A stretch of 63,996 nt of DNA, the filler included, from Circinaria calcarea (lineage: Eukaryota): assembly GCA_051942165.1 (NCBI GenBank). It is 5 parts of 5 records of this genome, joined end to end, with 100 filler letters (N's around TTAATTAATTAA, not from the genome) between each part and the next. Parts side by side here need not be neighbours in the genome. Positions count along the whole stretch, not along the records: positions 12,924 to 25,736 come from JAVECS010000537.1; 4 more parts are not named here. One strand, written 5' to 3'. The stretch's first letter is position 1; each line of letters begins with the position of its first letter. Below the pieces are notes generated by a model. The model saw only the letters and a program-made list of their open reading frames with translations. It ran no database searches and was not told the origin of the DNA. Positions 12,824 to 51,588 of this stretch are shown in pieces. Made by a program: the position numbers and the translations under genes.

Positions 12824-12923
12824 NNNNNNNNNNNNNNNNNNNNNNNNNNNNNNNNNNNNNNNNNNNNTTAATTAATTAANNNNNNNNNNNNNNNNNNNNN
12901 NNNNNNNNNNNNNNNNNNNNNNN
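12824..12923. other. Artificial contig linker
   Basis: 44 N + TTAATTAATTAA (stops in all six frames) + 44 N. Confidence 0.97.
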
Positions 12924-14009
12924 GTGTTGATTTTGGGGGGGGGGTTATTTTTTGGAATGGGGATAAGATGGGATGGTAATTCGTAAGGGAAGAGTGGGAT
13001 TTTTAAAGAGTGCGAGATGAGGAGAGGCTGTAGGAAGGAAGGAAGAAGAAGTAGGGATTTATAATTGCTGCGATAAAGGGGGTTTGGTGGCGTGTGGAAG
13101 AACGGTAGGGGATTTCATTGTCTAAAAACGAACAATAGACTTTCTTTGCTGGAAAATAATGGGGGGCATTTATTCCCTTTAACCTCAACCTTGTGAGCGG
13201 TAGATGCTGCATTGTTGCATCATTCCCAACCAAGGTCCCCTCCCCCCTTCTTTCCTTGCCCTCACCTCCTTGTCATTTCTCACTCTCACTTTCCCACCAT
13301 TTGGCGAACCCCCGAGATCTGGGTCGTGAGGAATCACTCCGTTCTGGGGTGATTTTATTTCAATAGCTGCTGAAAGCTGAATCTGAAAGCGCTTTCCGCT
13401 TTCATTTTATTCATGCATGGGGTTTGTTTTCCTGAGGAAGGGGGGGAGGGGGTTGGAGATGTCACGGAGGTCTCTCCCTCGCCGGGACCTTCCTTCACAC
13501 GAAGGACTCTGTATACGAAGAACTCTGTATATCAAGTAGCCACGAGAGACAAGTAGCAAAGTAGCAATAGCGGTAGAAAGCCATCTCATCTTCACCCTCC
13601 ACCACAGAACAGGAGAGACTGTGTGGAAAGGGAAAATAAGGGAATCGGGGAAAGGCAATCGGGAGAAGGGAATCAAGGAAAGGAAAAAAAGGGCAATGGG
13701 GAGAATAGAAGGAAGGAGGGAAAGAAAAGGGGGAATTTATGGAGGAGACTAAGCTAGCCTAGCTCAGCCCGACATGCCTATGGTAGGTTTGGTGGAAACA
13801 CGGAGACCATTTTGTCTCGTCAAAGGTTCAAGAGGGAAATGTTTAATGTGACATTGACACGACCCGACCCATACTGTAGGCAAAACTCCGAACCCTGACG
13901 GCTATGGATGAACCTATATACTCACAACGCACTCGTCCTCTTATCTGAGGCGGATTCTAGAATTCTCTTTCAGCAAATCAACTTCATCCAACCCACCCAA
14001 CCTCTCCTT

Positions 14010-17000
14010 TCACCTTTCAACGAGATAACCCAGCAACCTCCTTCCCGTAAACCTGCCATCGAAGACCGGTTGCAAGTGATCGAATTGGGAGAGCTCGTCC
14101 CAGTTTTCCATTCCCGTTTTTGTTCGCTCCTCTGCTTCTTTTCCCATGTTTTGTTTTTCCACGCCCTCTTTCCCCTCCACTTCCTTCCCCACTTCTACGG
14201 CCACGTCCGCTTCCACGGGACTCAATGGCAGCAGCCTCCCTAGAACCTCTCGAGCCTTCGCCGCTAGCTCCTGTGCTTCTTCTAAACCTTTGTCCTGTTG
14301 GGTAAGGATCTGTGAGAGGTGGAATTCCGCTCGCGCAACGGCAGCTTCGGACCAAGAACCAGGGCGGGAGTAAGAGGAAGTGAGAGCATGGCGAATAAGG
14401 CCTCTAATTAGAGTGGTTAGTCTGATGCTGGGACTTTATGGATTGGAGAAGTGCACGAGGGTACGCACTCAGCTTCAGGCAGATCTCCCGAATAATCGTA
14501 GAGTGCCCCCACCGCGTAGTAACTCTGCAGGGTCAAAAAGCTGAACTTGCCATGCTGTTTCAGACGCGAGTCTAGCACTTCCTTGTTCAAGTCCATAGAT
14601 CTTTGAAGGTCGCCGCTCTGCAGGAGAATGCAGGCGAGGTCGAATTTGGTCTTGTTGGTTGCGGAACTTTGACCTGTGGCGAGAGTAATGCAACGGAGGC
14701 CTTCTTCAGCGAGTGCAATTGCGCTGGCAAAGTCTTTGCGGTAGAGCCGGCAGAAAGCGGTGTGGTGGTTGTACTTGTAATATTCGTAAGGGATTTCGGC
14801 TTCGGTGCCCCATCCGTGGTATTTGGTAAGGCATTGCCGGAAGATGGGTTCGGCTTCTTGGTATTTGTTGTATTGGAGGAGGACGCAGCCGTAGTCTGAC
14901 CAAGCATTGTGGAGAAGGATGTCCTGGTTTCTGGTGACAGTTTCTGGGTTGGCTGGGTTCATACGGTCTTTCCTAATCTGCAAAGCCTTCCAGATACGGT
15001 CTTTACTCTCTGCGATATTACTGACTCCATAGTCCTGTAATAGGAGGGCGATTATAATGTGGATATTGGCTTCAAGCTGACCTTCATGGCTGTCTAGCTT
15101 CTTTAGTATGGCTTCAGCTGATCTTAAAAGGCGAAGCCCTTCGCTTGTCATTCCACGTTCCCAAAGGTTGATTCCTCCATCGGACAGCAGTTGCGCAAGT
15201 TTCATAGAAGGCATAATAGATGGCAAGGTTTCGATGACGATTTTCTGGATATTCAATACGTGGGGCAAATATTCTCTGCAAGCGGGCCAGTCTTCAGGGC
15301 TAGGGACCTGGATAGGTGATGGTAGAGGAAATCTTTTACGGACCAGGTCAAAAGCCTGCGCAAACACTTCCTCCCGTTTTTTTGCATCCTTGTCCAAATC
15401 TTGTAGAATTTTCCCCTGGAGTGATCTATGTATGCTCAAAACTTCCTCATCGTCCTGGCTCTTGACCGTGATAAGTCTTCTACGACTCAATTCCGTTATC
15501 ATCCTTTTGTATCTGGAGAATTAAATGTCAGCTTTTCTATGAGCTGATTGCCTAACCTATCGCTAAGGTCTCGAACCTGAAACTTTGATCTGAGTGTAGA
15601 AAGTCCAACGAAGGTTCCTCGTGCTCACCAACTAGTAGCTTTCGTTGAATGGTTTCACTATTCAAAAATGCTAGGATATTCAGTAATTCGCGCGCATCCA
15701 TAGTAACCTCACGTAAGCCAATGTTCCATACGGTCTCAAGTGCTTTATCAGTTGCCAAGGCGAGCGGATTCGTAACTTGTGAGGACGTCTTTGCATGCCG
15801 ACGCCGTTCATTCCACAATTGCACAAAGTCTGTGAGAGTACATTTCGATACTTGAACGTAACCGGCAATATGAGCAAGGGCCAAAGGAAGTCTTTCCGCA
15901 AGACTCGCGATCTCTCCCGCCAGCTTGTACTCGGGATGCGATATCAATCCCTTGTGATCCAAGCCCGGCTGCATCGATAAGAGTAACAGTCGTCTGCTCT
16001 CCTCCAAAGTCAATGCTCCTAGCTCAATGGTGTGGCATTTCGGTGATAAGGTTCTGCATCGTAGATCAGGCTTTCGAGATGTTATCAGTACTGATCCATG
16101 TAAATTAAGAGGGCCTATTGGCATATACTCCTGAATATCAGACCATGCGTTCACGTTATCAAAGACTAGTAGCCATTTTTTCTCGGTCTGCTCCAGGAAC
16201 TCTCTACCCAGTGTAATCAGTCGATCCTGGTCGTACAAAATATCATCATCAGTCACAACCAGTTGGGTCGCAATGAGGCTGTAGGTATCTGCGCAGCTGA
16301 TAGCTGTCTCCGCAGCTATCCAGAATATGTACGAGAACGCGGCCTCGTAACGGTATGTGTACTCTATAGCCACGCCAGTCTTTCCCATACCACCTGCTCC
16401 TGTGAGAACGCAGGTATTGCCAGGGACGGAGAGAATCTCGTGTAGCTTATCAATGTCTTTGTTCCGTCCAATGAAATCAGCGTTCCTTGGGGGCGGCTTT
16501 GTCCGGAAAGCAGGGAGTGGTCTAAATGGATTTTGTACTTGGCTTGGCAGATTAGTCCCAGGGGTCTCATTCAGAGGACTTAGGAGCTCGTTTTCGACCG
16601 GTAGAATCTCCTGCATGGACTGGTCTTCCAAGAATGTTTGTACTTTTGTCTTCCATAAGTCTCCATCAGCCTGGTTTGCGGGCTGCTTTTCGAGAAATGC
16701 CCTGACCTTCATCATCCACGAATCCCCTCTTCTTTGCATTGGAGGTCGACTAGGGCGAGTAGAGGCTGCGGGCTTCAAATTGGAAGGCTTTGGGTTTCGA
16801 ACCATGACCTCTTCATCCGAGTCTTCTGCAAACGGGAGATTTGAACCAGCCGAATCATTCTCCGCTGGTTCTTGCGTCGGCTGCCAAATATAACCACGCT
16901 GCTCTTCGACGAAGTCATGAAGAAGTTCGAATTTGTTCCTGTTCTCAGAGGCGTTGTCATCGAAGAAAGGGGAGAGGACCTCCTTCTCTAAACCATCTTC

Positions 17001-18562
17001 ACTCTGAATGGACATTAACGCTAATTGCTCCATATGATCTGCCATATGTTCCTTGAGAAGTTCAGTCTTTACGCTGGAGTATCCGCAAAATGGACATGGC
17101 TGATAGGGTGGTGTTTCCTCGGAGAGTCTCTCGCACAGTGAAACCATAATTGACATGCCACTAGCGTCAATTGTGGTCTTGTGTTTTTCAGTAAGATGTA
17201 ACTCGAATTCTGCCTTCTTTTCAAACTCACGGTTGCAAGCTTGACAGAACCAGACCTTGCAGAGTCGATGGTTGTCGATTTCGTGCTGAAACCATTCTTC
17301 TCTTACACCAAAAGTCTTATCTGCTCGTATGCAGTCATCAAATGTGCATAGATAAGGTTCTAGATCCATCAAGACGTGTTGAGCCCAGTCTCTTTCCGAG
17401 GCAATCTGAATTCCGACGACTACCTCTTGACCACAAAAACGACAGGTGAACTCGCTCCCAGATCTGAGCATGACGGGAGGCTTGGGTATTTCGTACCGGA
17501 CCCATCTAATCACCTGGTCTGAGTTGGCTATGGATATTGCAGAGTCGCCACTAAAGTAATTTGGTCGTGAGAATATAGTATCGTTGACAGATGATGGCCC
17601 CGCTTCGGAGGTGCTTTGGCTTATGATATTGCCATACGATGGAAATCCAATTCTGTGAGAAGGTCTCCTGAAACTGGAAGTGGAGAAGAAGCCGGAGTCA
17701 CGGTCTTGCTCATGGTTTCGTCTTCCTTCTTGCTTTGACCACAAGGTCTGACGATCTGGCAGCTGCAGCCCCTCCAGATATTGCCTTCTTTTCCAATTGG
17801 CAAGTCCGAGTCGACGGGTAAGCGATGGCGCCGCTTTGGGGAACATCTTTCTTGCTAGGGCAATATCTGTGTCTGCTTCATTTTGAGATGCATTTACTCG
17901 GTATAAATCTTGAGGTGCTGGATCTTGGAGTGCTGGGATTAGTTTGATGAGACAATTGACACTCTCTTCGATGTCTTCTATGAGTTGCTGAGGGCTCGTC
18001 TCAGAGCCTGAAGAAGACCTGCTGAGCATGAAGGGTTCGGCATCTTCTCGCTGTAAGTTAAGGTTGTCTATACGATTTGTCGGAGTCCTAAGCAGTGGAA
18101 TCGAACCGTCCTGGAGACTGCCACGTGCTACGGCAGTCGCGTAGATGTTAGTCCTTGTCCAACGAGTAAGGGGGATGATTATATATCGCCACAAGAGATA
18201 CTGGTAAATTTATCAACGAATACAATGACGCCCAGTTCATCTAAGATCCCAGAGGGTCTCTAGCATGTAATAGTGTACTTGTAAAGTCATAAAGCTATCA
18301 ATCTCTTACTTTCATGAAGCGTCGAGAGTAACGTCTCAAGCATATTCTTTGTAGCATCTTGTAGTCGGGAGGCCTTCCGTAGAATATGGTCGAGCGAGCG
18401 ATCTGAGGCTCCTGTATCATTTCCCCACTCCCGGAACTTGCTGAAGGAGGCGTCTAGCATGAAGTGTTGAAACCTCCATGCATCTTCGTTGGCCTCCATT
18501 ATGGTGCACAGCTCTGCGAAGGACTGGAGGCAATCCTCAAAAAGGGCGGCGATAGGAGCCAT
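14010..18562 (-). CDS. NLR-like protein: N-terminal helical domain + C2H2 zinc-finger cluster + NB-ARC + TPR; multi-exon
   Basis: Exon 1 MAPIAALF..FREWGNDTGA..SLDHILRKAS. The 880-aa ORF has CRFC, W..HV..DLEPYLCTFDDC, WFQHE..H, WFCQAC..F..HL..H and CPFC..HMADH, then Walker A GAGGMGKT, Walker B LLVFDN, ITSR and LPLALAH. TPR-like exon 15502-14466. A last exon of about 14405-14010 (EAAVARAEFHLSQIL..FDHLQPVFDGRFTG) is only partly shown in the ORF track. Confidence 0.88.
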
Positions 18563-19063
18563 CTTGTAGGCATGGCTCCTTTCATGATTCCGCATCCGTC
18601 CCAGCTCTTGCTTTGCCATGGTCATTGTAAAGAGACCGAAGTTTCCAAGTTCTAGCTGCCGGAGCTGAATCGAGAGGCTGAGCTCCTCGGGTTATGTACA
18701 AGCAGTCCAGAGGGGGAATCGATACGATGACAGTCACAGGATTGAAAGAGCCGGAGAATGGCGGGGTTATCCATCCTATCCAGATCGACCTTAGTACAGC
18801 AGCCATCACTCCCCGATAGATCTTAACGCTGCAAGGCTGGAAGCTTGGCGGAGGTTTGCCGAATCAGCCACCAAAACGTGATCTGGCTGCAGGATGCGGC
18901 GGGACGGGAAAGATACGACATTCAGTTACTTCGGAGGGGTCATGGTCCGTAGTGATATTGTAACTTCAAGCCTGTGTCGCAATTGGGGAGAGAGACCGAC
19001 GTTGCTCTCATCCGGCGACACCCTACCGCATCAATAGGCCCAGTTCAACACTGTTACAGCAAG

Positions 19064-20778
19064 ATGTCAGGCTTCGAAATTGTTGGTGTCATCCTAGCAG
19101 TATATCCCTTAATCGGGACCGCCCTGAAGGTATACCAAGCAACCAAGTCCCGGAGAGGAGCAGCTTCGTTGGCATTGGCCATTAGTACCGAGGAGATTAT
19201 TTTCAGCGAATTCGTTCAGAATCTGCTAGCGCCGAACGTCTCATCAGAAGCGGAGCTGGTTCGCCTTGCAGATCCGAGTTCCCAGAACCTCGAGTTGTGG
19301 AAAGACACCACGCTTCAGCAGAACTTACGGAATCGTCTAGGCCCAAGGAAAGCGAAAGTGGTCCTGGAGACGTTGTGTGAGATAGGGGAGTTGCTGAAGT
19401 CGTTGCAGGATGAGCTGTCTCACAAAGATCACGGAGTGGTAAGAAGAGTCGACGGGGAGACAAAGTGGATTTTTATTCGTTACGGCACCGCTGATGTATC
19501 GTGTAGGAGCTGCTCCGGAAGTTCCGTGCCAATGTTCGCGAGATCAAGCAGAGTCTGCCGCAATCCAGTCTGAGAGACCGGCTCGATAGCTTGACCAAGT
19601 ACAATTATCAGTTGAAACGCCTGATGACCGACCGCTCCTCTCCGCGCAATGTGACGTCCAAAACAGTGTCGGTGCCATCAAGACGTTACCTGCGGCGAGA
19701 TTCTAGCCACGTTGTCGATCTATACAATGTCATCTACAATGGGTATCAATGCAATTGCGATGTCCCCCATCTTGCCAATTTCGGCTTGCCCCAAATATCC
19801 GATCATTCTCAAACCGACAGTACCTGCTTGATCAACGATTGGCAGTTTGACCTTTTGTTCCCTATCGATGGCTCGGAGCCAGATGATGAACACTTCACGT
19901 CGGCTTCGGAGCTTGATCGGTTTATGGTGACCTGGTCCCAACTCAAAATCAATCGCGCCACGCCCGGGAGCCCAAAGAACGTAGCCAAGCAACAACTCCG
20001 ATCGATATCCATTTGTGAGTGCAGCGACGCTCGCCCGGCGGAACAGCAAGGACCGATTCAAGACTTGTGTGATCTGATCAAGACCCTTGATGCAAGCGTT
20101 CTGGCTGCGAACGCTCGTCTGGGCGTCTTACGGCTGAGGGAAAAACGATACGAGCTCCAGGCACCAGTCTCCCAACAAAATGCGGCCCCTCCACCCAGCA
20201 TGGTTTGCCTGGATGACCTGCTTACGGATCAACGCTTCTTAGTATCACGAAAAGAACGTATGAGTCTCGCGCTCCGGCTTAGCTATGCTATCCTACAATT
20301 CTACTCTACCCCGTGGATTGAGGCATGCTGGACTTGGAGGGATTTTTGCATCAACAAGCATAATGACTCGCAGTTGTTCATTTCCCGCAGGTTCTATTCG
20401 ACTCGCAGTCGTACGTCGGACCTGAGTAGCCGCAGATCATCGCTGAATTCAGGGTTTTGGGATATTGTCGGAGAGCCGATCCTGACCAGATTAGGGTTTG
20501 CTCTCATTGAGCTCGCCCTTGGTAGAAGGCTGGCTGAGCTGCGTCCGGAACATCAAGGGAGTGCAACGGATCCCGACGCGCTAGATTTCCGGACCGCCAG
20601 GAAACTGGTTGACGGTGGATACGTTATGCGGGAAGAAGGTCAACGGTATGAAGGGGTGGTGAAAGCGTGTCTCTATCATCAAATCGTGTCGAGTCAAGCG
20701 ACCTTCCAGGAGGAGGTTGAGCGATGCATCATTGAACCGCTGCATACCATGTGGACATCATCTTGGGGAGATCTATAG
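19064..20778 (+). CDS. HeLo-like N-terminus + DUF7580-type (kinase C-lobe-like) protein; 2 exons
   Basis: Starts MSGFEIVGVILAVYPLI; intron 19439-19506 splices in frame; CNC..H; SRKERMSLALRLSYAILQFYSTPWI..W; LGFALIELALG; Y..VVKACL. Confidence 0.82.
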
Positions 20779-21812
20779 GGTTAAGCCATGGCTCGGCTTC
20801 GATTTGAGTACGCGGGACCCCTATATCGAAGCCATCATGCTCGTCGGTGATTGCCACAGTTGGCACGTACGATAGCGCATTATGAATTGCATTGGCCAAG
20901 CGTAATTACCGAGTACCAATCGGGAGCTCCCAAGCGCGCGCTAGCCATCGATCCTCGGCAAGTGCGGGGTCGACAGTCTTCTCGAACATCTACTTGGTTA
21001 AGGTGCTCCCCTGCAGAAGATTATCAGCCTGAGATGGTAGTTTGCCGGTAGTGTGGTGATGGAGGGCAGTCTGCACGATTAAAACCCAGCCAACCTTGCA
21101 GTCTTTGAAGCACCTCAGCACCGCCGGGTTGAGTAAGTGACAGCAAGAGCAGGAGAGCAACAGTCGGCCATGGCAGGTAAAGCTGCCTTTCCTTCCGGAA
21201 GCGAGGAAACATGGTTGACAAAGCAGACACGGACGACTCCGCGAGAACGGATCAGGACTCTGAAGGTTGGATTCAGGAAACCATCGACGCATCCGAAAGG
21301 GATACGCGGAGGCAGCCGTGGAAGGCCACGTTTGCCAACACCGTCGATTGTGGCTTCGGCGACAGCATGGACCTCGTCGTGATTGAGAAGAGCAACGGCG
21401 GGGTGCCTGATCCGCTCTGCCCCTTCAAGACCCAAGGAAGCAGTCTCGCAGCATGAGGGATGGATCGAGGAACGGTATGCTATCAGGGAACAGCGTAATA
21501 AGGGCTCTCTGTCATAACTGATGCCGGAGACAGGCGAGGTTGAAAAAGCGGCCTGGGGCAGCGCTTTGGTTGAGGAAGGGTGGCCAAAGGAAACGGGAAA
21601 CGGGAAAACGAGATGCACCCACTATCCTCTCTCGCTCGCGGGAGATTGATCTTAGCTTTATTGGATCATTAGCAATCAGCGGCCCTTCTTTCTTCCTAGA
21701 CCCTGCTAGCTTGGATCGAAATGCAGCTAAGGCGAGCCTAATCGAGGGGGTGGGGGTGGGCCAAACGTAGAGATATACACAAACCATCTGTATCCTGTCC
21801 AGAACACTTGCT

Positions 21813-23029
21813 ATGGCAGCGCATGAGCTCCCAATCACCCTGAAATTCTTAAAATGGCAGAAGCTATACGAGACCGAGAAACCTTTTAAAATCTTCATCA
21901 ACGTCCCCAAAGACGCCCAAGACCCCCGGGATACCAATCTCGTATTCGAAAGCGTCAATGTTAGGGTACACAACGTTCGTGAGCATGTTGATGGTTTCTC
22001 GCTGGATAACAACGGTTTCATGTACCGGCAACATCTTACCCGGCTGAGTAATTTTACGGACCGGAAAAGCGTGGACGAGACTTACCTCCCCGAGATGGAG
22101 GCTCTTTTGAAGAAGGAGGTGGATGGTGTCGATCAGGTGTTCTTCTTTGATTGGAGGGTAAAACTTAAATCCCCGACCAAGGACAAGTAGTCGACTATAG
22201 AATCGCTAACGGACCCAGTAGCTACGCAAGAACGCGCCGGAAGTCGAAGGCACCGTCGTTGACATGAACGATCTGACCACATGGTTACGGCCTGCCGTCC
22301 ACGCCCACATCGGTGCCCTCTCCCCATCCGCTATCCGGAGTCCTTGCCGAAGTAAACTAATCCCGAGGAGATCAGAGCCCCGCCGCCGCTTTGAAAAGAA
22401 TCCAGCTCCAGCTCCCGGCCGAAGCATCCTACCTCCTCAAAGGTCGTGTCCGCATCATCAAGTACTTTCACCCTTCCCCCTTTCTTCTTCCCCCACTCCA
22501 ACTGACCAACCCACCTTTTCCTCCACCAACAGCATCTGGCGTCCCCTCATCCCCTCCGTGTCTGACTGGCCTCTCGCCCTCTGCGATGGGTCCACCGTTT
22601 CCCCCCACAGCCTCGTTGAAACCGATCACGTGCGCCGAAGCTACACGGGCTCGACCATGTATCTGATGCATGAGCCGCAGCAGAAATGGTACTATCTGAG
22701 TGGGCAGGGGAAGGCGGAGGTGGTGATTTTTAAGAATTTCGATTCGGAGCGGAGAGGGGTGAGGGCGAGATGTAAGTTTTCGACAGTGTTTGTGGTTGAT
22801 TTAAAGGGGCTACGCCTAGAGAATTGGGAGTAGGCTGCTTGATGGATAAAGATGGGAAAATATGCGGTGATGGATGGTTGATAGATGGCTAATCTCGATT
22901 GAATTAGATGCGCCTCATGCCTCCTTCCTGCATCCGGATGCAAAGGCAGACAGGCCGCCTCGAGAAAGCATCGAAGTCCGAGCTTTTGTCTTTACTTATC
23001 CTAAAGATATGAAGCTTCCGGATGCTTAA
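21813..23029 (+). CDS. AsaB/CmcJ/NvfI-like hydroxylase/desaturase (Fe/2OG-type); multi-exon
   Basis: FSLDNNGF, YLPEMEALLK, HAHI|DQS, N.WRPL..V.DWPLALCD, QKWYYLS.Q..EV.IFK.FDS, APHASF, RESIEVRAFV. Confidence 0.88.
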
Positions 23030-23824
23030 TTATAAGTTTCTATGCCTCGCTTGTCTTTTCAGATACAAGCAAAGACACGAAACCACCCCACTCTCAGCCT
23101 CAGTTGAGCGAGAGCGGAACACCGAAGGCGGGGCCCTCGTTTTTACTTCTAGCCTACAGATATCCAGCCTCCGAATTCTTTACCGCGTGTGACTCCATCT
23201 GACGGCCAACCTCAGCCTCCTCTTCCTCTTAATTTCCCCCGCAAACCAGAAAACTCCAGTGAAACCGATAGCGATAGCGATTTCTTTCAGACCACTTGGC
23301 CTCAATCCGGCGTGGGTTGCTACCCTCGTAGACAGGAGGGGAGGGAAGGAGGGAGAGGTTGTAACTGAGAGCTCCATCTCAGGGAGCGGGGCCGTTCTTT
23401 GCTGGAAGAAACCTCTGTAGGGAGGAAAGAAAAAGACTGGGGGAAGGGGGGGTAATTGGAAGATGGATGAGATCTTGGGGAGCACTAATACCTAACGGAG
23501 CTGGAAGCGCAGGATTCTTCGCTTCCAGCATTGCAAGCTGTCATGAGTGCAAATCTTGTTTATCATGTTACAAAGATATTCGATTGTTACGAAATACAAC
23601 CTCCTGCTTCGCTTGGCCTCGCGCCTGACGTAATACGCCTCTTCCTTGATCGCATCGCGTTCTGGTTTCAAGTGTGTGGGGCAATGATTATATGCGTTTC
23701 AACTATAGCCGTCCCTTGAATCTTGAGGATATACAAAGCTGTGATGCATGACTCTCCCGTCCGTCTTTGTGAATATGATGCATACAGCCCTCGATGGCCT
23801 AGTCATTTCAGCTGAGCTTACAAC

Positions 23825-25134
23825 ATGTCAGTTGTGCCAGGCTTTCTATTACATACGGGTGGCGTCGTAATTCCAGCTTTCCAAGTCGGAGTCCCAGACA
23901 CGTGGCACTGCCGCCCACAATACGGGGTTCGGCTCGGCGGTCAAGAATGCATCGATGCCATAATGCAAATGCCCCGCGGCGACAGGTCAATTGAGTATTC
24001 CATGGATGGGCCCGTGCGTGGCGATCATACTCTCCCCTGGAGCGTAAGGGCTAGTAAGTGATACAGGAACGTTTTGGGAATATAATCGGGTGGCGATACT
24101 GATGAGCTTGCAGATGATTGTCGAATCACGATTGAATTGGCTGGCCCTTCTCCTCGAACCAAGACGTATATTGCTATACCTGATGTGCTCCGTGGGGTGG
24201 CAGGTATATAACTGCAATCGAATCATAGCTATTCACGTTGATAATTCTACAACAGCCTGGTTGCTTGGCAAGTGTGTCCTTGACGAAGGTGGTCTGGGGG
24301 GATACGCAACCATGGGTTTTCAGGGCATATATAGCTATGTTCAAAACCCTGCTTTGGACCTGAACGGTCCCTGGCGTAAGTCAAAACCCCATTCCAGACA
24401 CGTCTGAAATACAGACTGAATCATGCTATGCAGCCACCTCGACCTCGTATCTTACAATCACCATCACGAGCAGGAGCAAACGCCGCTCGGGTGCAGGGGA
24501 TGCCGACCCGCTCATCCCTCTGCATTTGTATCTAGCTCAAGCACAATTCGACGGCTACCACCTGTCCAAGGAAACATATCCGTTTTACCAGGCCTTTTTG
24601 TCCATGTCACGCGCAATGCATACAGCAGGACGTCAACCGTGGTGGCAGCACCTATCCCGCTCACCCTCCCATCCGGATCAGATGACCTATGCCTGCGATG
24701 CCAATCTAGGTAGCCCACCCGAAGTAGATTGCTCTCGATTGGAGTACTCGGAGCTGGGTGCCCCATCGGATACGGTAGCAATCGTCCCTGGCATACCTAA
24801 GGTTCTCTTCTCCCAAGTCTGCACACTCGCAATTTCGTCCCCTATTCCTATCACCGTTACCTGGGCCCAAGTCAGCGCCGCTCTGGAGGCGTTGATAGGC
24901 ATTTGCGTTTCCGGACCTCTGAAAAGGACCGGGGGCAGAGCATACTATGCCGCCCAAGGGACGGTTATTCCCAATCGGGGAAGGCAAAAGAGATCGGATT
25001 CGCGAGTCTCGGGTATGTAGTCTTGGATCCACGAATATCGAAACGTACCTGAAATTGGTGCTGCAGTGTCCAACGCCCTTCCACCACATGTGAATCTCAC
25101 CCTCTACCAAACGGGATATTTTGTTCCCGAATAA
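23825..25134 (+). CDS. Cys-rich hypothetical protein with two similar C..LG.P...DC modules; multi-exon
   Basis: CRPQYG..L..QECIDAI..MP and YACDANLGSPPEVDCSRLEYS..CTLAI..W..V.AALEALI..C..GG; last exon NALPPHVNLTLY ends at TAA 25134. Start uncertain. Confidence 0.65.
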
Positions 25135-25692
25135 AGCGAGACCGATACAGCTTTTCGTGGACGGAGGCGGAGTCGACAGGTTAATCGGCATCACTAAAGT
25201 ATTGAGTGCAAGTCTCGTGTTGGAGTCCAGAACTTGAAAGAGGCGAAATCGGTGGAGTTCTCGGGCTTGATAGCCTCGCCTTGGCTTCCAGACAAACACC
25301 TCAGACCATTTACTCCCTCTCTCCCTCCCCCTGTTTCACAGCAAGGACCCTTTATCCTACCCATCTCCCTACTCGGTACCCACCAAGACTCCTGTCCCCA
25401 AACACGCAACACCTTACACATCGCAAGTATATCCAGCAACTTACACAACCCCCGAAACGCGCTTCCATCCCGAACCCGTCTATCGTACACACGAATATGT
25501 AAAAGTACACATCTTACCTACGCAACAGAATGTTCATCATGATCTTTCTGCCTTTCTTTTCCTTCTGGGCTCCTAAAAATTCTAGCAAAGCAAAGCGGGG
25601 GAGACTGAGGTATATAAAACGGGGATAGAGCAAAAGGAGCCGATTTAAGTTTTAACTATATATATCAAAGTTACCTCTCGACTCGAAATTAT

Positions 25693-25736
25693 TCCCAATC
25701 GTTTTACAAAGTATTCACTTTGTAAAACGATTGGGA
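25693..25736. repeat. Perfect 20-bp inverted repeat with 4-nt loop at the contig end
   Basis: TCCCAATCGTTTTACAAAGT-ATTC-ACTTTGTAAAACGATTGGGA. Confidence 0.93.
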
Positions 25737-25836
25737 NNNNNNNNNNNNNNNNNNNNNNNNNNNNNNNNNNNNNNNNNNNNTTAATTAATTAANNNNNNNN
25801 NNNNNNNNNNNNNNNNNNNNNNNNNNNNNNNNNNNN
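25737..25836. other. Artificial contig linker
   Basis: 44 N + TTAATTAATTAA + 44 N. Confidence 0.97.
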
Positions 25837-38613: not shown

Positions 38614-38713
38614 NNNNNNNNNNNNNNNNNNNNNNNNNNNNNNNNNNNNNNNNNNNNTTAATTAATTAANNNNNNNNNNNNNNNNNNNNNNNNNNNNNNN
38701 NNNNNNNNNNNNN
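38614..38713. other. Artificial contig linker
   Basis: 44 N + TTAATTAATTAA + 44 N. Confidence 0.97.
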
Positions 38714-51488: not shown

Positions 51489-51588
51489 NNNNNNNNNNNN
51501 NNNNNNNNNNNNNNNNNNNNNNNNNNNNNNNNTTAATTAATTAANNNNNNNNNNNNNNNNNNNNNNNNNNNNNNNNNNNNNNNNNNNN
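51489..51588. other. Artificial contig linker
   Basis: 44 N + TTAATTAATTAA + 44 N. Confidence 0.97.

Follow-up and report, generated by a model that had tools for sequence, protein, structure and literature searches.

The stretch of DNA analyzed here (63,996 nucleotides, filler included; hereafter the window) comes from Circinaria calcarea (GenBank assembly GCA_051942165.1) and consists of five contigs of ~12.8 kb joined by filler, with 44-N runs in pairs, at positions 12824-12923, 25737-25836, 38614-38713, and 51489-51588. The second of these contigs alone (JAVECS010000537.1, window positions 12924-25736) carries a compact, 6.8-kb pair of divergently transcribed genes, one encoding an NLR and the other a partner protein in which a predicted four-helix bundle precedes a kinase-fold domain of the family DUF7580. 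No copy of the pair was found on the other four contigs of the window, and genes outside 12924-25736 are not neighbors of the pair. Positions of all features discussed below are collected in Table 1.

A preliminary description of the locus had recognized these two genes at essentially these coordinates and called both intact, which is borne out by open reading frames (ORFs), by Pfam matches on the exon translations, and by end-to-end alignment of the NLR with an ortholog. The 1432-residue NLR is 60% identical to ortholog P0123 of Xylographa soralifera over its entire length (q13-1429/s15-1408). The NLR start codon had been placed at 18562, which proves to be an internal methionine; orthologs and the deposited model begin ~20 codons upstream, at 18619 or 18625. 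Accordingly, the spacer between the two start codons, earlier given as ~500 bp, measures 438 to 444 bp. The closest database proteins are hypothetical proteins of a Circinaria calcarea metagenome-assembled genome (locus tags Q9187_003323 and Q9187_003324), and both deposited models are wrong: P0114 (961 amino acids [aa]) reads into intron 2 of the NLR gene (15513-15576) and stops there, so that the whole TPR region is lost, and P0001 (567 aa) retains 19 residues encoded by the partner intron (19439-19506). Our corrected models are backed by RNA contigs from one metatranscriptome run, which span the NLR and partner genes and lack all four introns; their joints lie at 14401>14472, 15512>15577, 18127>18312, and 19437>19506. 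Since all four introns are skipped, both genes are transcribed and spliced as modeled, at least in a relative of the window fungus; that the RNA stems from a close relative follows from the 26 contigs aligned, 23 of them at 90 to 95% identity, 3 at 95 to 99%, and none at 99% or above. These contigs permit no ranking of expression, and since they leave 18526-19296 uncovered, they mark no transcription starts. Below, N-terminal features of the NLR are numbered on P0114.

Table 1. Features of the gene pair and its surroundings, in window coordinates
Feature	Position	Strand	Basis or remark
NLR gene	14010..18625	-	4 exons; 1432 aa from ATG 18619; open spliced ORF
NLR exons	18625/18619-18310, 18127-15577, 15512-14469, 14403-14010	-	GT-AG introns, guided by full-length orthologs
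NLR N-terminal four-helix bundle (predicted)	17931..18556 (aa 22-169), split by intron 1 (18128-18309)	-	AlphaFold2 (AF2)
C2H2-type zinc-finger cluster	17013..17486 (aa 318-475)	-	invariant Cys/His columns in 14-sequence ortholog alignment
NB-ARC NTPase domain	15810..16460 (aa 660-876)	-	Pfam, E = 4.5e-10
P-loop GAGGMGKT	16377-16400	-	
Post-NB-ARC helical/TPR sensor region	14013..15511 (aa 955-1432; intron 3, 14404-14468)	-	Pfam TPR_12, TPR_10
NLR stop codon	14010-14012	-	
Shared spacer between start codons	18626..19063	.	438 bp
Partner gene	19064..20778	+	2 exons, 548 aa
Partner exons and intron	exon 1, 19064-19438; intron, 19439-19506 (GT..AG); exon 2, 19507-20778	+	RNA joint
Partner four-helix bundle (predicted)	19064..19438	+	AF2, helices 5-27, 30-55, 62-92, 94-122
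Two connecting ("brace"-like) helices (predicted)	19507..19629 (P0001 143-160, 165-185)	+	AF2
DUF7580 (PF24476) kinase-fold domain	19705..20766 (P0001 211-564)	+	Pfam, Foldseek, VIA
W-R-D, putative remnant of HRD	20335-20343	+	
F-Y-S, putatively in place of DFG	20392-20400	+	
G-E-P, putatively in place of APE	20470-20478	+	
Small conserved ORF, ending ...CPFKTQGSSLAA	21211-21456	+	downstream of partner, no Pfam family

Read from its N terminus, the NLR comprises a charged, poorly conserved stretch, a four-helix bundle, a disordered linker, the C2H2 cluster, an acidic linker, the NB-ARC domain, DUF7779, and TPRs. With a central NB-ARC domain that carries a P-loop and with C-terminal repeats, it is an NLR/STAND protein of the NB-ARC-TPR type, encoded on the minus strand as first described. 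This architecture is shared by its orthologs, in which Pfam recovered NB-ARC and DUF7779 in 14 of 14 sequences and TPR_12 in 13 of 14. Among solved NB-ARC structures, the nearest by sequence are those of the plant proteins NRC2a (E = 2.7e-11) and ZAR1 (E = 4.7e-7). Conservation within the protein is highest in the TPR region, with tblastn identities to other lineages of 46 to 68%, compared with 39 to 45% for exon 2, and a search of its DNA for internal repeats found none. Many rapidly evolving fungal NLRs differ from the window NLR in this respect. Two local features of the protein may be mentioned here. The acidic linker contains two copies of an amphipathic motif, (D)xW..KV..FL..Q, at 16641-16724 (aa 572-599), which are kept in orthologs and could act as a docking peptide. 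At ~14075-14180, a Lys/Glu-rich insertion of ~30 residues, absent from orthologs, lies ahead of the conserved C-terminal FDHLQPVFDGRF.

The four-helix bundle and the C2H2 cluster of the NLR were missed by the preliminary description. AF2 predicts the bundle with a pLDDT of 78.1 and a pTM of 0.60 (helices 22-43, 45-69, 84-109, and 149-169). Against the Pfam HeLo model (PF14479), it scores 17.5 to 18.2 bits (E = 0.0023 to 0.0037), below the cut-off of 23.2, and a HeLo match at E ≤ 0.05 occurs in 2 of the 14 NLR orthologs (best, 4.9e-5). The N terminus is hydrophilic (19-residue Kyte-Doolittle mean, -1.4), and the first helix is not hydrophobic. A VIA structure search with this bundle retrieved generic bundles only (pectin methylesterase inhibitor at Z 11.8, designed bundles, and talin), with no MLKL, CC, or HET-s chain in the top 50. 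Foldseek returned nothing for it (best E, 0.73), an Atlas feature search with the NLR N-terminal domain reached unnamed clusters only, and the NLR profile had no HET-s match among PDB sequences at E ≤ 1. The zinc-finger cluster matches zf-C2H2_2 with an E value of 4.9e-4, below cut-off, and PF26082 is precomputed on orthologs.

Turning to the partner, its C-terminal domain is a member of DUF7580 (E = 1.8e-16; 61.2 bits against a cut-off of 27), so that the plus-strand gene starting at 19064 does combine a hydrophobic N-terminal helix with a DUF7580 C terminus, as had been proposed. An AF2 model built from an 88-row alignment (pLDDT, 82.8; pTM, 0.70) agrees with the earlier view of the protein as a helical bundle joined to a degenerate kinase lobe, and its C-terminal end is the last helix of the kinase fold. 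Residues 125-142 of P0001 form a low-confidence loop in the model, which corresponds to the wrongly retained intron. A Foldseek search of the model against the PDB returned protein kinases in all of the 50 best rows, headed by BRAF (E = 3.7e-3; prob, 1.00). When the best 1000 Foldseek chains were realigned with VIA, 198 reached a Z of at least 8, BRAF among them (Z 9.5; root mean square deviation [rmsd], 5.1; 186 residues aligned), and the top row was full-length mouse MLKL (4btf; Z 10.0; 284 residues aligned over model residues 5-558). Judging from motif order and secondary structure, the sites of the kinase landmarks HRD, DFG, and APE appear to be taken by W-R-D, F-Y-S, and G-E-P. The preliminary statement that HRD and DFG are both missing holds for DFG, apparently replaced by F-Y-S, and fails in part for HRD, of which a W-R/K-D remnant is retained. 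Most of the invariant partner residues lie in the C-lobe: among 19 orthologs, these include T412, W414, I415, W419, W421, D423, and F424 (TPWI..W.W.DF), F440-Y441 of F-Y-S, G466-E467 of G-E-P, and L473-G-F-A-L-x-E-L. The N-lobe contains no invariant Lys or Glu in the same 19 orthologs, and no Pkinase or MLKL-type Pfam model matched any of 88 partner-family members at E ≤ 1. DUF7580 is predicted to adopt a protein kinase fold without the catalytic Lys, the catalytic Asn, and the DFG Asp. We found no paper naming DUF7580 in the literature searched. In addition, the N-lobe has an invariant Y-x-C-x-C-x-x-P-H motif plus D-L-C (C226, C228, H232, and C332 of P0001; 19750-19770 and 20068-20070), a Cys/His cluster that, from its sequence, could be a structural zinc site.

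At the other end of the partner, AF2 helices and structural matches alike support the four-helix bundle that had been suspected. The first helix (MSGFEIVGVILAVYPLIGTAL) is hydrophobic (19-residue Kyte-Doolittle mean of 1.88 over residues 6-24), enough, as predicted from sequence, for a membrane segment, and residues G3, E5, G8, L11, and P15 are nearly invariant. The label "brace" for the two helices that follow the bundle is borrowed from the layout of MLKL and is provisional. VIA was also run, without recourse to Foldseek, on 48,161 representative chains, where Z scores below ~13 can be generic for bundles; here the first rank went to the CC domain of potato Rx (Z 10.6; rmsd, 2.8; 104 of 107 residues aligned) and the third to full-length mouse MLKL (4btf; Z 10.0; 282 residues aligned across both domains). 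Lower ranks included the CC of MLA13 (rank 12; Z 8.8; 113 aligned), the N-terminal domain of MLKL (6ux8_A; rank 19; Z 8.4; rmsd, 3.8; 124 aligned), the CC-R of NRG1.1 (rank 21; Z 8.3; 107 aligned), and AtMLKL3 (6ka4; rank 32; Z 7.9; 252 aligned across both domains), and the CC domain of Sw-5b was likewise within the top 50. The NLR bundle serves as a control: since the same search with it did not retrieve this set, the retrieval of MLKL and CC chains appears to exceed what any bundle yields. Resemblance to MLKL, already noted in the preliminary description, is thereby upheld, with the full-length mouse protein placed first of 1000 realigned chains and third of 48,161.

By language-model features, the named Atlas clusters nearest to the 125-residue N-terminal domain were HeLo (29% of members; score, 0.96; 6 hits), PigL_N (13%; 0.91; 7 hits), and SesA (14%; 0.87), with 16 further hits lacking a family. 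We treat these neighbors as a lead and not as membership in HeLo, PigL_N, or SesA. The HeLo-like character earlier attributed to the N terminus is retained only at the level of fold and of language-model features, and it is not recovered by hidden Markov models of these families (HeLo, PF14479; HeLo-like/PigL_N, PF17111; SesA, PF17107), as detailed below. The N-terminal domain profiles of the partner and of the NLR showed no significant similarity to each other in hhalign (P = 0.07 to 0.1), and a comparison of the partner profile with PDB sequences gave nothing meaningful, the best match being to hemagglutinin coiled coils (E = 0.03). By sequence, the partner is not a member of the MLKL, HeLo, HeLo-like, or protein kinase families, and it has an MLKL-type N-terminal four-helix bundle at the level of predicted fold only.

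We asked how far the two genes occur together in other fungi. They have consecutive locus tags, on contigs of equal length, in seven named lichen fungi (Circinaria, two Xylographa, Gyalolechia, Letrouitia, Blastenia, and Pseudocyphellaria), and 37 contigs, recognized by their exact lengths, are common to the partner rows (113) and the NLR rows (94) that give a length. Scanning metagenome contigs with the partner alignment yielded 41 partner loci. By tblastn with the window exons, NLR exon 1 was found upstream on the opposite strand in 21 of the 21 testable loci, meaning those with at least ~800 bp upstream of the partner start; by our own grouping of near-identical rows, these represent ~14 lineages. 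Hit ends in the head-to-head loci are 325 to 913 bp apart, partner identity to the window is 28 to 48%, and the whole NLR is present in 13 of 13 loci with long flanks. A further 14 loci lack the partner 5' end, and six have less than 800 bp upstream (L005, L017, L024, L032, L038, and L039); among the latter, a partial NLR match (E = 2.5e-4) lies at the edge of the contig in L017, and L032 has a weak one (E = 1.4). Across nine loci, NLR and partner identities covary (r = 0.94 over 36 nonindependent locus pairs). The preliminary description had named unlinked orthologs as one outcome that would refute its reading; orthologs are linked almost everywhere that could be checked, and on this test the reading therefore stands. 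For comparison, a 2026 paper (PMC13449251) reports that, of the NLRs of Podospora, only ~11% are kept in all of seven species, which makes conservation of the window NLR and its neighbor across fungal classes unusual.

Could the two genes simply be neighbors by chance, their adjacency reflecting general microsynteny among related lichen fungi? The small ORF at 21211-21456 and the gene after it are also syntenic in many lineages, and some deposited models (P0007, P0008, P0021, and P0023) fuse this ORF to the partner. As an internal control, however, the ORF is kept in 6 of 11 testable lineage groups and is absent within 3.9 to 10 kb in the other five (the L002, L006, L007, L021/22, and L023 groups), which have lost the downstream neighbors and remain head to head. 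Both genes share 37 contigs, the head-to-head order holds at low partner identity, and a fusion gene exists. Because the NLR is head to head with the partner in all 21 loci and the locus tags adjoin in seven species, the pairing is far beyond chance, and the pair outlasts flanking synteny. We therefore strongly disfavor chance adjacency and regard it as very improbable. Four flanking ORF translations had no Pfam match. Two observations on the metagenome loci deserve mention in their own right. L002-L004 and L007-L009 are two NLR-partner pairs, 37 to 38% identical, from the same two samples and on contigs of 0.3 to 1.5 Mb; they may be old paralogous pairs in one genome, the pair having been duplicated as a unit, or may belong to two different fungi. 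A related C2H2 region, with 33% identity to aa 241-398 of NLR exon 2, occurs in L002 (17635-18135, plus strand), as well as in L003 and L004, in a second gene located ~6 kb downstream of the partner.

The partner N-terminal domain family is small, as a phmmer search of 1.84 billion representatives found only 163 proteins (E ≤ 1e-3). Named members of the partner family reach Leotiomycetes, Sordariomycetes (Apodospora and Colletotrichum), and one verrucarialean lichen fungus. Pfam assigned DUF7580 to 16 of 24 longer phmmer matches, nothing or unrelated weak matches to 7, and NB-ARC to 1; a profile search for other DUF7580 architectures returned PF24476 proteins only. The single NB-ARC match is P0251 (610 aa), encoded on a run-assembly contig; it clusters with P0357 (763 aa), which is named as a hypothetical protein of Leptodophora sp., and both are natural fusions of the two genes' products. 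Their first piece (33% identity; E = 2e-36) corresponds to partner residues 1-258, which run from the bundle through the connecting helices into the beginning of the N-lobe, and their second piece is an NB-ARC domain 42% identical to that of the window (E = 5e-68), which in P0357 continues into the post-NB-ARC region. The fusion is seen in two assemblies, and since the partner and NLR genes lie on opposite strands, it is not a merger made by a gene caller. It lacks the partner pseudokinase as well as the bundle and zinc fingers of the NLR, and it puts the partner bundle at the position usual for NLR effector domains. The joint loss suggests that the dropped modules, NLR bundle plus zinc fingers and partner pseudokinase, form a docking pair. 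The N-lobe Y-x-C-x-C-x-x-P-H motif is degenerate in the Leptodophora fusion.

These results bear on a model in which the partner is a guarded or adaptor protein. The plant NLR ZAR1 works with the pseudokinases RKS1 and ZED1. By comparison with that system, the partner's dead kinase would be a bait or adaptor held by the NLR TPR region, the NLR would report changes in this bait, and the NLR bundle with its zinc fingers, or both bundles, would execute. The likeness is considerable: here too an NB-ARC NLR with an N-terminal helical bundle is associated with a catalytically dead kinase-fold protein, and ZAR1 is among the plant CNLs nearest to the window NB-ARC by sequence. The strong conservation of the TPR region and its lack of hypervariable repeats would fit a conserved endogenous ligand, the partner C-lobe carries most of that protein's invariant residues, and the bundle that the NLR itself carries matches HeLo weakly. 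On the other hand, the partner has a bundle of its own with a hydrophobic first helix, which a mere adaptor would not need, whereas the NLR bundle has no such helix and finds generic matches only. Furthermore, the fusion in Leptodophora dispenses with the pseudokinase and has the partner bundle at the NLR N terminus, which marks that bundle as the output module. The pair also differs from ZAR1 in that its sensor is made of TPRs and not LRRs and in that its genes are adjacent and divergent, and sensor and executioner may have exchanged roles. We consider a guard/adaptor arrangement quite unlikely.

We instead lean, by a modest degree, toward reading the locus as a conserved two-gene module of Pezizomycotina, in which a STAND/NLR switch controls a partner of MLKL architecture that acts as executioner. 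By analogy with MLKL, the pseudokinase domain would hold the partner bundle inactive. The NLR, triggered through its conserved TPR region, would oligomerize through NB-ARC, and the oligomer would dock or cluster the partner through direct contact between the proteins; amyloid templating would play no part, nor would a phosphorylating kinase. The partner bundle would then be freed and its first helix would attack a membrane, leading to regulated cell death or a related membrane signal. All four elements of this scheme, namely, autoinhibition, docking, membrane attack, and cell death, are modeled on MLKL and on NLR-executioner pairs, as described in PMC12881547 and PMC10197012. In a more specific and more tentative version, which we rate as possible but somewhat short of even, the pair would constitute a necroptosis-like fungal axis: the NLR would switch on a full MLKL-type executioner by docking or proximity, and the NLR bundle, having lost its killing helix, would form with the zinc fingers a docking platform for the pseudokinase. 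The loss of the helix may be likened to that in sensor NLRs of plant sensor/helper pairs.

Several observations weigh against this interpretation. The model leaves the NLR's own bundle and zinc fingers unexplained. Conservation of the pair at 1:1, a highly conserved TPR region, and the lack of hypervariable repeats are atypical for NLRs of pathogen recognition or allorecognition. Since the downstream small ORF is syntenic in many lichens, part of the linkage within Lecanoromycetes is ordinary microsynteny. In Stipitochalara longipes, the partner-like P0079 and the NLR P0193 are listed on contigs of unequal length and may be unlinked, and in a word-limited search, several partners from Leotiomycetes (Xylogone, Phialocephala, Cadophora, Bisporella, and Scytalidium) had no NLR listed from the same contig. 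As for structure, the Foldseek E values for the kinase fold all exceed 1e-3, the partner bundle scores (Z 8 to 10.6) are within the generic range, designed bundles and the CBL bundle scoring alike, and the two domains are oriented to each other differently than in MLKL (rmsd, ~19.6 over both). Finally, the Pfam models HeLo, PigL_N, SesA, and Goodbye match none of the 88 partner-family members at E ≤ 1.

Some of these points would be expected if the genes were regulated together but not directly coupled, or had a role other than cell death. A bidirectional promoter would then place both in one conserved stress, developmental, or signaling pathway, with zinc fingers and pseudokinase as scaffolds, and the partner would not serve as a membrane executioner under NLR control. 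Deep 1:1 conservation, unusual for fungal immune NLRs, agrees with this, as do the missing Pfam HeLo-type match and the generic Z values of the bundle. Yet a fusion that joins the partner N-terminal module to this NB-ARC speaks for the two acting within one complex, among full-length structural matches MLKL ranks best, each of the nearest named Atlas clusters belongs to the HeLo, PigL_N, and SesA set, and the gene pair survives loss of the flanking synteny. Co-regulation without coupling is, in our judgment, unlikely, though it deserves to be kept in mind.

The NLR-controlled executioner that we favor can be set against known systems. Its likeness to MLKL, both mouse (4btf) and plant (AtMLKL3, 6ka4), lies in the succession of bundle, connecting helices, and C-terminal kinase fold without catalytic residues, and both solved full-length proteins align over both partner domains. 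Differences are equally clear. No similarity was detected by sequence (the 19-ortholog profile, compared with all PDB sequences, did not reach MLKL at E ≤ 10), nothing points to an upstream RIPK3-type kinase, the partner N-lobe bears an invariant Cys/His cluster, and a divergent spacer that is itself conserved ties the partner gene to that of an NLR. We know of no description of such an NLR-linked divergent layout for MLKL. Plant MLKLs do act in NLR-dependent immunity (10.1101/681015).

Within fungi, the closest parallels are NWD2/HET-S and PNT1/HELLP, in which an NLR gene likewise adjoins one whose product has a HeLo or HeLo-like membrane-targeting bundle at its N terminus; like the window NLR, PNT1 is an NB-ARC-TPR protein (PMC12881547). 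The window pair differs in that the NLR N terminus is a folded bundle with no amyloid motif common to it and the partner C terminus, and in that the regulatory C terminus of the partner is a 350-residue pseudokinase fold in place of a prion-forming domain. That the pair shares no amyloid motif had been remarked before and agrees with our results: no amyloid-type motif common to the two proteins was found by hhalign of their N termini (P = 0.07 to 0.1; no dedicated amyloid-motif grammar was run), and the partner ends in the last helix of its kinase fold. N-terminal effector domains of fungal NLRs, surveyed in 2022 (PMC9815663), belong to a bundle superfamily related to MLKL's four-helix bundle (4HB), and all-in-one NLRs of this sort resemble Leptodophora P0357, which carries the partner bundle, and the window NLR, whose bundle has a weak HeLo match. 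The partner bundle is not matched by the Pfam models of those families, however, and the window pair has the bundle that bears the hydrophobic helix on a protein of its own, where it is joined to a pseudokinase. In the available text of that survey, kinases occur in the reference list only, and neither "zinc" nor "C2H2" is matched.

As summarized in PMC12881547, fungal HeLo/4HB executioners are either activated by amyloid templating from an NLR or built into the NLR itself. The same 2025 review of fungal regulated cell death assigns bona fide MLKL homologs to plants and urges broader study of fungal HeLo/4HB proteins, while MLKL is named in the early-diverging fungus Basidiobolus in PMC11476962. 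In the available text of the literature that we searched on fungal MLKL-like, HeLo, and pseudokinase proteins, no description of this gene pair was found. If the proposed module is real, it would represent a third wiring of fungal executioners, besides amyloid templating and domains built into NLRs, and Pezizomycotina would possess the MLKL-type layout in full, tied genetically to an NLR across fungal classes. The worlds of NLRs and of MLKL would thereby be linked in one small locus, and DUF7580 would gain a structural identity. The pair also raises the question of how a four-helix-bundle killer can be released by a pseudokinase without phosphorylation, a question that is testable because the pair is compact, conserved, and transcribed and because a natural fusion points to the domains concerned.

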